From positions 7,773 through 71,772 of the forward strand of contig JAQTQJ010000008.1 in the NCBI GenBank assembly GCA_028712255.1: a stretch of DNA of 64,000 nt. The letters are read 5' to 3'. Made by a program: the position numbers and the translations under genes. A model generated the notes under the pieces. It did no database searches and had not been told where the DNA came from. It saw only the letters and a list, made by a program, of their open reading frames with translations. Below, piece after piece: positions 55,802 to 56,212 of the stretch (positions are counted from its first letter, which is position 1; each line of letters opens with the position of its first letter). The stretch comes from Candidatus Omnitrophota bacterium. GTDB lineage: Bacteria > Omnitrophota > Gorgyraeia > Gygaellales > Profunditerraquicolaceae.

Positions 55802-56212
55802 ACCAGGCAATCTTTATAACATATTGAAATTGTTGTAAATACGTACTCATTGAATAACTTAGGTAGTATTTTTGTTTTATTAGTTTTTAATGGTTTTTAA
55901 TCAATTTTAACCTTAGGTAGACACTATTTAGACACTACTTTAAGGATGCATTAGGGATCAAAGATAGTTGAATAAGAAATTGCTTATTTTTATTTTTGAG
56001 ATAGAATTGCTTTAGAAGCAAAGACAATTTGGTTCACTAGCCATGCCTTAAAGAGGACATAGAACCTCTAACTGTGAAGTAAGGTAAGCTGCATCACTCC
56101 CCGAAAGGGAGGCGGGAAATGCAGTCTTATCGGATTTACTTCACAGTTGCCGGTGGGAATATGCGCCCGCTTTTTGTTGGGAGTAAGATTCAGGGAATAA
56201 GCAAAGGAGATA

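Follow-up and report, generated by a model that had tools for sequence, protein, structure and literature searches.

How the first genes of an integrative element are brought to expression is the question raised by a 370-nt non-coding region at positions 55840-56212 of the window, that is, of the whole 64,000-nt stretch of DNA analyzed here, which comes from a contig of a Candidatus Omnitrophota metagenome-assembled genome. The first-pass annotation, made from the letters alone, had described two direct repeats and a long GNRA-capped hairpin in this region, and had proposed a structured RNA or integrase arm-type sites rather than a plain promoter. Judged by comparison with related loci, an integrative element of at least 8.2 kb is inserted here at a tRNA-Ala gene, and the region forms its left end. 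Behind an attachment-site arm that carries the repeat TAGACACT, the region contains a promoter and a leader that we consider rather likely to constitute an attenuator cassette, with a terminator, an antiterminator, and an anti-antiterminator. The comparative evidence indicates that this leader can adopt two alternative folds, the long hairpin and a predicted terminator.

RESULTS

A conserved promoter and leader between unrelated genes

Homologs were sought in loci that were fetched through the integrase and the lipoprotein of the window and in metagenome contigs that carry the module; these are the L-numbered loci referred to below. Comparison of the region with the fetched loci by blastn identified copies of 55990-56188 that were 80 to 88% identical in L002, L004, and L015, the three best matches. 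A metagenome scan with a pattern derived from invariant positions, GGGAAATGCAG-N4-8-CGGATTTAC, returned 60 contigs, approximately 45 of which were true, and nhmmer recovered 49 copies at an E value of ≤1e-32, of which 41 were distinct; the nhmmer match in the window spans 56004-56184. The module defined by these 49 copies is a promoter and leader on the plus strand (55980-56184), with a mean column identity of 83% in the 41-sequence alignment (A5). Conservation sets in about 30 nt before the -10 box and stops abruptly past the T-tract TTTTTGTT (56171-56178), which forms the end of the module.

The genes on either side of the module are unrelated between copies (140 clusters), and the integrases of the related loci are only 58 to 86% identical. 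The first downstream gene mostly lies 16 to 50 nt past the T-tract, on the same strand, and comes from unrelated families: small lipoproteins, zinc-ribbon proteins, and proteins of unknown family are represented among the homologs. A covariance model (CM), R1, matched the window at 56037-56181 with 168 bits on the plus strand versus 20 bits on the minus strand, and, apart from L004 and L015, searching with this model yielded no more diverged copies, either in the window or among 33 loci that have related integrases.

A riboswitch had been one suggestion of the first-pass annotation; no known class is matched. Rfam 15 gave no family at gathering scores over the whole window, and nothing relevant among 4,227 families at an E value of ≤10 in 55600-56400. 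Phage records matched the tRNA piece alone, plasmid records gave no match, IMG/VR viral contigs gave no match to the module patterns, and the literature searched held nothing relevant on RNA motifs or mobile-element regulation in Omnitrophota. On this computational evidence, the module is a previously undescribed RNA family, with what would be a known kind of mechanism.

The leader is preceded by a predicted sigma-70-type promoter on the plus strand (55980-56007), with a -35 box, TTGCTT, at 55980-85, a 16-nt spacer, and a -10 box, TAGAAT, at 56002-07. In about 29 of 40 homologs, the element TTGnnn-N16-18-TAnnnT is found at the corresponding alignment position, and some of these are close to consensus (TTGACA-N17-TATACT and TTGACA-N17-TAAAAT). 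Besides RNA structure, the region has an ordinary, conserved promoter as well. Transcription would start near 56014, and the predicted leader RNA, covered by the nhmmer and CM R1 matches, would be about 165 nt long if terminated (56014-56178, plus strand). No second promoter was found between the module and the downstream gene, and no minus-strand promoter that might produce an antisense RNA was seen in the module by consensus scan and inspection. In about half of the homologs, a 15-nt palindrome, TTGCTT-TAG-AAGCAA (56007-56021), covers the -10 and +1 positions; its arms change together (TTGTTT/AAACAA), and the remaining homologs lack 8 nt there. This palindrome may be an operator or a 5' hairpin.

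The long hairpin is supported by compensatory changes

All of the hairpin features described in the first-pass annotation are present, at 56070-56148. The outermost is a 13-nt perfect inverted repeat (AACTGTGAAGTAA at 56070-56082 and TTACTTCACAGTT at 56136-56148); a perfect inverted repeat of at least 13 nt arose in 1 of 300 dinucleotide shuffles of 55840-56212. Within it lie the inner stem CTGCAT/ATGCAG (56089-94/56119-24), a second inner stem, GGTAAG/CTTATC (56083-88/56126-31), with one G.U pair, and the GNRA-capped apical stem CTCCCC-GAAA-GGGAGG (56097-56112), which has one C.A mismatch in the window copy and six clean pairs in most homologs.

When the homologs are taken together, this structure, designated fold A, is a putative antiterminator on the plus strand (56070-56148) that consists of P1 (56070-82/56136-48, 13 bp), P2 (56083-88/56126-31, 6 bp, with a conserved G.U pair), P3 (56089-93/56120-24, 5 bp), and P4 (56097-56112, 6 bp), with a GGAU bulge at 56132-35. 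The tetraloop on P4 (56103-56106) is GAAA in 36, GCAA in 4, and GUAA in 1 of the 41 sequences. Upstream of P1 lies a smaller hairpin, H1 (AGAGG/CCTCT with an 8-nt loop, 56052-56069, plus strand), which is common to both folds.

In the MAFFT alignment A2, 98.2% of the cells of fold A are paired, compared with 28 to 44% in slid-register controls, and double-sided changes affect 9 pairs and 55 cells, a level reached in none of 500 shuffles. The lower part of P1 contributes 5 pairs with 47 double-changed cells, and at least nine fully complementary P1 variants are found. In H1, which is 99.5% paired, 4 of the 5 pairs show compensatory changes, and P4 co-varies from CTCCCC/GGGGAG to CTGCCC/GGGCAG; in P2 and P3, variation is confined to one side. 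The structure is assigned to the plus strand because its conserved G.U pairs would turn into C.A in the opposite strand and because of the difference between the CM scores of the two strands. The proposal of a structured RNA therefore holds for the right half of the region, with its compensatory changes across 41 distinct homologs and a folding z-score of -2.9 (56040-56215), but not for the left half, where the z-score of -0.99 (55804-55990) is no better than that of shuffles and no significant fold exists.

A predicted terminator is the alternative fold

Fold B is the RNAalifold consensus prediction for the alignment, and it pairs four segments of the leader differently. Segment 1 (AGCCATGCCTTA, 56039-56050, plus strand) pairs with segment 2 (56080-56090) around H1, forming a putative anti-antiterminator, the 1:2 helix. 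A predicted terminator hairpin (56111-56171, plus strand) is formed by segment 3, its 5' arm (GGCGGGAAATGCAGTCTTATCGG, 56111-33), and segment 4, its 3' arm (CCGGTGGGAATATGCGCCCGCT, 56150-71), and its base, GGCGGG:CCCGCU, abuts the T-tract.

The pairing of fold B is found in 98.1% of cells, with 10 pairs and 38 cells double-changed, and again none of 500 shuffles scored as high. The pair 56113/56169 takes the form C-G in 18 sequences and G-C in 21. More pairs with both sides altered are found higher up in the terminator stem, including a change from UC...GA to CU...AG in L094, and in L070 and L004 each arm of the terminator has a 1-nt insertion that matches the one in the other arm. For the 1:2 helix, 96.5% of cells are paired and five are double-changed, from C-G to U-A in L015, L045, and L053 and from U-A to A-U in L094 and L057. 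In these cases, the partner in the other fold is unchanged; in the change from U-A to A-U, the altered base of segment 2 is matched in segment 1 and not in the 3' arm of P1. A helix between segments 1 and 4 (UACC/GGUR) was also considered and was rejected, as it has only four pairs and no double change.

Two further observations were made on these helices. The 5' tail AAUYUG (56026-31) is complementary to the CGGAUU at the bulge (56131-36) in 91% of cells, with no compensatory change; such pairing might shield the bulge from invasion by the 3' arm of the terminator, and no other partners for the 5' tail were found. In L046, L061, and L077, the 5' arm of P1 is of one variant type and the 3' arm is of another, so that the lower part of P1 is mismatched, and in L046 the base of the terminator is mismatched as well. 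These three copies have arisen either by natural recombination within the module or through chimeric assembly.

The two folds fit a switch

Folds A and B cannot coexist, because P2 and P3 use residues of the 1:2 helix and of the upper terminator stem. The helices that co-vary freely, namely, H1, the lower part of P1, P4, and the base of the terminator, are those that belong to one fold only or are common to both unchanged; the four segments used by both folds are almost invariant and show only rare, concerted changes. This pattern of variation fits a switch over a single fold. The arrangement has the anatomy of a terminator/antiterminator attenuator in other respects also: a promoter lies upstream and a co-oriented gene directly downstream, a GC-rich stem stands directly before a U-tract, and the 3' strands of P2 and P3 (56120-31) double as the 5' arm of the terminator. 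An anti-antiterminator that forms first has support as well, though thinner than that of the other helices: besides its pairing, the 1:2 helix is the minimum-free-energy structure of transcripts that end before segment 3. In a growing transcript it keeps this position until segment 3 is made, after which the long hairpin takes over.

Based on these data, it can be envisioned that the promoter starts an RNA near 56014 whose first 160 nt or so act in cis as a transcription attenuator. During synthesis, segment 1 would pair with segment 2 around H1, leaving segment 3 (here 56120-33) free for segment 4. If the 1:2 helix persisted while the polymerase crossed the last 45 nt or so, the 3:4 helix, together with UUUUUGUU, would act as an intrinsic terminator, and transcription would stop at the T-tract. 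Alternatively, the lower part of P1 (56070-79/56139-48) would nucleate, and segment 3 would displace segment 1 from segment 2; the long GNRA-capped hairpin would then form, the 5' arm of the terminator would be removed, and the polymerase would read into the downstream genes. Kinetic competition is the most likely mechanism of choice between the folds, and the bias could come from the speed of the polymerase, a host or element protein, an RNA, or a metabolite. Termination, the order of folding, and a regulated choice are what we infer from the sequences. Read-through could reach the rep, xis, and int genes, since all of the element genes in the window are co-oriented, a link that rests on gene order.

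Several points weigh against this reading. The calculated energies favor fold A over fold B in 39 of 41 sequences, with mean values of -55.1 and -48.9 kcal/mol, respectively, and therefore termination would need kinetic trapping or a factor. The GSGGG:CCCSC pairing could form as a pseudoknot beside the long hairpin, where GSGGG sits in an internal loop, so that the strictly exclusive part is limited to the upper terminator stem, with its few double changes and the paired insertion. The least supported helix is the 1:2 helix, for which there are about three independent compensatory events. The position of the start site, near 56014, is a prediction from the -10 box. Among the things searched, no sensor was found, whether a conserved leader ORF, an Rfam aptamer, or a conserved neighboring gene. 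Moreover, the sequences are closely related, which inflates the significance of the shuffles and makes the cell counts overstate the number of independent events, and the evidence is all comparative and computational.

A wider proposal is that the module represents a new class of RNA switch, one that senses a signal such as a ligand, a protein, or the speed of the polymerase, and that it travels as a portable promoter-leader cassette among Omnitrophota integrative elements, gating read-through from the cargo into the replication, excision, and integration genes and thereby coupling the state of the cell to activation of the element. We put this forward tentatively, as a possibility that is more doubtful than not.

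Alternative explanations for the module

The attenuator model has to be weighed against a riboswitch in the strict sense, which would be a special case of it and in which the 5' domain (the 1:2 helix, H1, and the internal loop) or the long hairpin would bind a small molecule and so set the choice between terminator and antiterminator. The anatomy is like that of riboswitch expression platforms, the GNRA loop is kept as a class, and there are unpaired residues that never vary, namely, AAC after H1, the GGAU bulge, and the 5' tail AGACAAUYUGG. However, the absence of any Rfam match even at the permissive threshold is against it, nearly all of the invariant residues are explained by their use in two helices, which leaves little for a ligand pocket, and the downstream genes, being unrelated and non-metabolic, give no hint of a ligand; on balance, we regard a riboswitch of this kind as unlikely. 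We are similarly skeptical of a stand-alone small RNA of about 160 nt that would have its own promoter, would always be terminated, and would act in trans in immunity or copy control, with the long hairpin and the GSGGG:CCCSC pseudoknot as its single fold. Trans-acting RNAs of this type have precedents in the P4 CI RNA and the countertranscripts of plasmids, and the module does have a promoter of its own and a terminator exactly where conservation ends; segment 1 is similar to segment 3, and segment 2 to segment 4, as is the case in systems whose target sites are repeated, and the module acts as a repeat in assemblies. Nevertheless, the long hairpin as a single fold cannot be reconciled with the compensatory changes and paired insertion of the upper terminator stem or with the compensatory changes of the 1:2 helix. 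In addition, most copies are followed 16 to 50 nt further on by a same-strand gene with a ribosome-binding site and with no second promoter between, no complementary target was found in the window, where matches to the 5' tail did not rise above chance.

It is very improbable that the module functions at the DNA level, as a single-strand hairpin for recombination, transfer, or replication (attC-like, oriT, or sso-like) or as a part of attP. Its location where an integrative element ends, 200 nt from the core of the attachment (att) site, and its long inverted repeat would suit such a role, but most homologs lie between co-oriented genes and not beside an att site, and the related elements L006 and L018 have the same arm without the module. 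An attC-type hairpin would keep its structure with a free sequence and an adjacent recombinase; here the sequence is highly conserved, and there is no fixed neighbor. The promoter and T-tract, like the conserved G.U pairs and the alternative terminator pairing, are what one would see in a transcribed RNA. The remaining explanation, a chance hairpin or a simple terminator of upstream transcription beside a plain promoter, draws on the ease with which AT-rich intergenic DNA folds and on a consensus scan that gave one terminator-like site, at 56152-56171. That local hairpin was rejected as a candidate terminator, since it is not conserved and its 77.6% pairing equals that of shuffles, whereas the long-range helices are 98% paired, with many compensatory changes, and occur in 49 homologs with unrelated flanks. 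The comparative sequence data thus refute the chance explanation.

A leader-peptide attenuator of the trp or Tn916 tet(M) type was also considered, and no conserved ORF was found upstream of segment 1. The claim that the region contains no ORF is correct as far as conserved ORFs are concerned, and three short ones exist: one of 42 amino acids over the tRNA piece, one of 30 amino acids on the minus strand, and one of 45 amino acids at 56119-56256. The last of these, with its ATG at 56119, was rejected as a leader peptide, as its frame is broken in 5 of 41 homologs and its end points are variable.

The attachment-site arm and the tRNA core

A 5' piece of a tRNA-Ala(CGC) gene, comprising its first 45 nt without the 3' half, lies at 55759-55803 on the plus strand. 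ARAGORN did not call a tRNA at this position, and the Rfam tRNA model gave a partial match of 23.3 bits, which is below threshold. The piece is identical at 44 of 45 positions to the complete tRNA-Ala(CGC) of L004, from which it diverges thereafter; in L004, an integrase 86% identical to that of the window ends directly at this tRNA. Likewise, L006 and L018, whose integrases are 71% and 61% identical to that of the window, have a 40- to 41-nt copy of the 5' part of their own tRNA (Lys and Gln, respectively) at the far, left end of the element. The match in L004 and the 5' tRNA duplications in L006 and L018 are the reasons for identifying 55759-55803 as the attL core. The right end of the element, with a predicted attR, would lie beyond the window.

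The sequence past the core can be aligned over 150 nt, in colinear order, to the left ends of L006 and L018, despite the different tRNAs, and the three arms have in common, in order, a conserved block at the core, an AT-rich hairpin with a T-run, and tandem arm repeats; in the window, this P' arm occupies 55804-55940 (plus strand). Both direct repeats of the first-pass annotation are present, CTTAGGTAG starting at 55858 and 55912 and TAGACACT starting at 55918 and 55929, and their fates differ. The pair TAGACACT-ATT-TAGACACT (55918-55936, plus strand) recurs in related elements and is a candidate pair of arm-type integrase sites, as had been proposed. A tandem T[AG]GACACT-N3-T[AG]GACACT, with the 11-nt spacing kept, is located 115 to 120 nt past the attL core in the window, in L006 (4294), and in L018 (6832), and the other arm has a tandem T[AG]GACACT 80 to 90 nt before the tRNA in L004, L006, L018, and L033, within the C-terminal coding region of the integrase. 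The repeat stands at constant distances on the two arms even though the cores differ between elements, which is the pattern of arm-type sites, and the tandem is probably bound by the N-terminal, arm-binding part of the element's tyrosine integrase. In contrast, CTTAGGTAG is missing from the related arms of L006 and L018, and chance would be expected to produce about one repeated 9-mer in 370 AT-rich bases; CTTAGGTAG was rejected as a site.

On the other arm, the tandem repeat encodes the C-terminal tail of the integrase, R-M/I-D-T-I/F-W-T (L004, 8415-8445; L006, 10975-11005). The putative binding sites of the P arm would therefore overlap the integrase coding sequence.

Genes of the element and its surroundings

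Upstream of the element, the neighbor is a type II secretion/type IV pilus-like operon, the last base of which is 55649. This operon contains a 459-bp tandem duplication (53280-54143) that has produced two pilin-like genes, at 53292-53684 and 53751-54143, with 98% identity (128/130 amino acids).

From the tRNA piece to the end of the window, everything is on the plus strand. The first gene past the module has a ribosome-binding site, AAGGAG, at 56204-09 and encodes a 132-amino-acid lipoprotein (56213-56611) with an LPAM_1 signal, which is identical to NCBI PHC29_05080. It has one homolog only, at whose locus the leader module precedes a different first gene. Small lipoproteins and zinc-ribbon proteins follow downstream of the non-coding stretch, and the element further encodes a Rep-O-like protein (58867), an HTH_17 excisionase-like protein (62497), a MerR-like protein (62818), and a tyrosine integrase that starts at 63005 and extends beyond the end of the window. 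In the integrase, about 58 residues precede the first domain matched in Pfam (Int_N/SAM-like, from residue 59). A 62-amino-acid Cys-rich protein (62307-62495) has no Pfam match, and tblastn found ORFs with 50 to 63% identity to it in L015, L049, L059, L060, and L072. Besides the HTH_17 protein and short N-terminal zinc-ribbon matches, it is the sole protein of the element that is matched in several loci with the module, which makes it a candidate regulator.

In L048, L054, L002, L084, and others, the genes upstream of the module are variable, same-strand, and defense-like (McrB_N, KAP NTPase, AIPR, DUF2326, CfrBI endonuclease, NucS, and HNH); the window has no genes of this kind there. From its gene neighborhoods, the position of the module looks like a cargo insertion hotspot where defense genes accumulate. 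In L099 (2283-3345) and L067, the module is preceded, at a distance of only about 40 nt, by the end of a more divergent integrase (about 36% identical), an order that is as expected for a circular or differently permuted form of the element.

The Logan contigs of the genome's own sample break at 55784 (L003) and resume at 56154 (L001), and the latter start fits a repeat that ends near 56184; some JGI contigs end at the edges of the module (L063 and L084). This suggests that the tRNA half and the module are repeats within the sampled communities, where several elements share the module.

DISCUSSION

Omnitrophota are uncultured, and the literature searched holds no account of the regulation of mobile elements in this phylum. 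The module described here is a compact RNA of about 160 nt, known in some 50 natural variants, and the evidence that it has two mutually exclusive folds is clear. A response of the switch to a signal would make it a new class of regulatory RNA, and the module could offer a way to learn when the elements excise or express their cargo. In addition, a conserved cassette between variable genes marks what may be a defense-gene hotspot and helps in the annotation of islands in metagenomes.

The attachment-site arm is reminiscent of the P and P' arms of attP in lambda-like systems, in which short direct repeats unrelated to the core lie on both sides, here at about 80 to 120 nt, and the window integrase has an extra N-terminal domain. 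As a difference from those systems, the duplicated core here is the 5' half of a tRNA, and one set of repeats lies inside the C-terminal coding sequence of the integrase itself; the sites in the window are predicted from sequence.

In classical attenuators, the helix that is made first decides the outcome co-transcriptionally. Like the trp, pyr, and T-box leaders and riboswitch platforms, the module is a promoter-proximal leader with a terminator made of a GC stem and a U-tract, its antiterminator uses the 5' arm of the terminator, and an anti-antiterminator lies upstream. Unlike them, it has no conserved leader peptide and no T-box or riboswitch CM match, its antiterminator is unusually long (about 30 pairs in 79 nt), GNRA capped, and clamped by a freely co-varying 10-bp lower stem, and it is found on a mobile element before non-metabolic genes.

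Premature termination mediated by RNA is also known from mobile elements, as in the P4 CI RNA (seqA/seqC), the antisense attenuation of pT181 and pIP501, and the prgQ/Anti-Q system of pCF10. These systems resemble the module in that the leader of a main operon has repeated complementary segments and a terminator that depends on a choice of pairing. They differ in that the module gives no Rfam match to C4 or CI RNA and that all of its pairings lie within one transcript.

The closest biological parallel, by analogy of arrangement, would be the attenuation of tet(M) in Tn916, whose leader attenuates transcription at the first cargo gene and in which relief of attenuation and read-through stimulate excision and transfer (PMC9632896). 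The Tn916 mechanism differs in relying on ribosome stalling at a leader peptide and in responding to translation inhibitors; no leader ORF is conserved in the module, the sequences are unrelated, and a coupling of the module to excision is predicted from gene order. What the two have in common is that the attenuator is carried by an integrative element and precedes cargo genes running in the same direction as xis and int.

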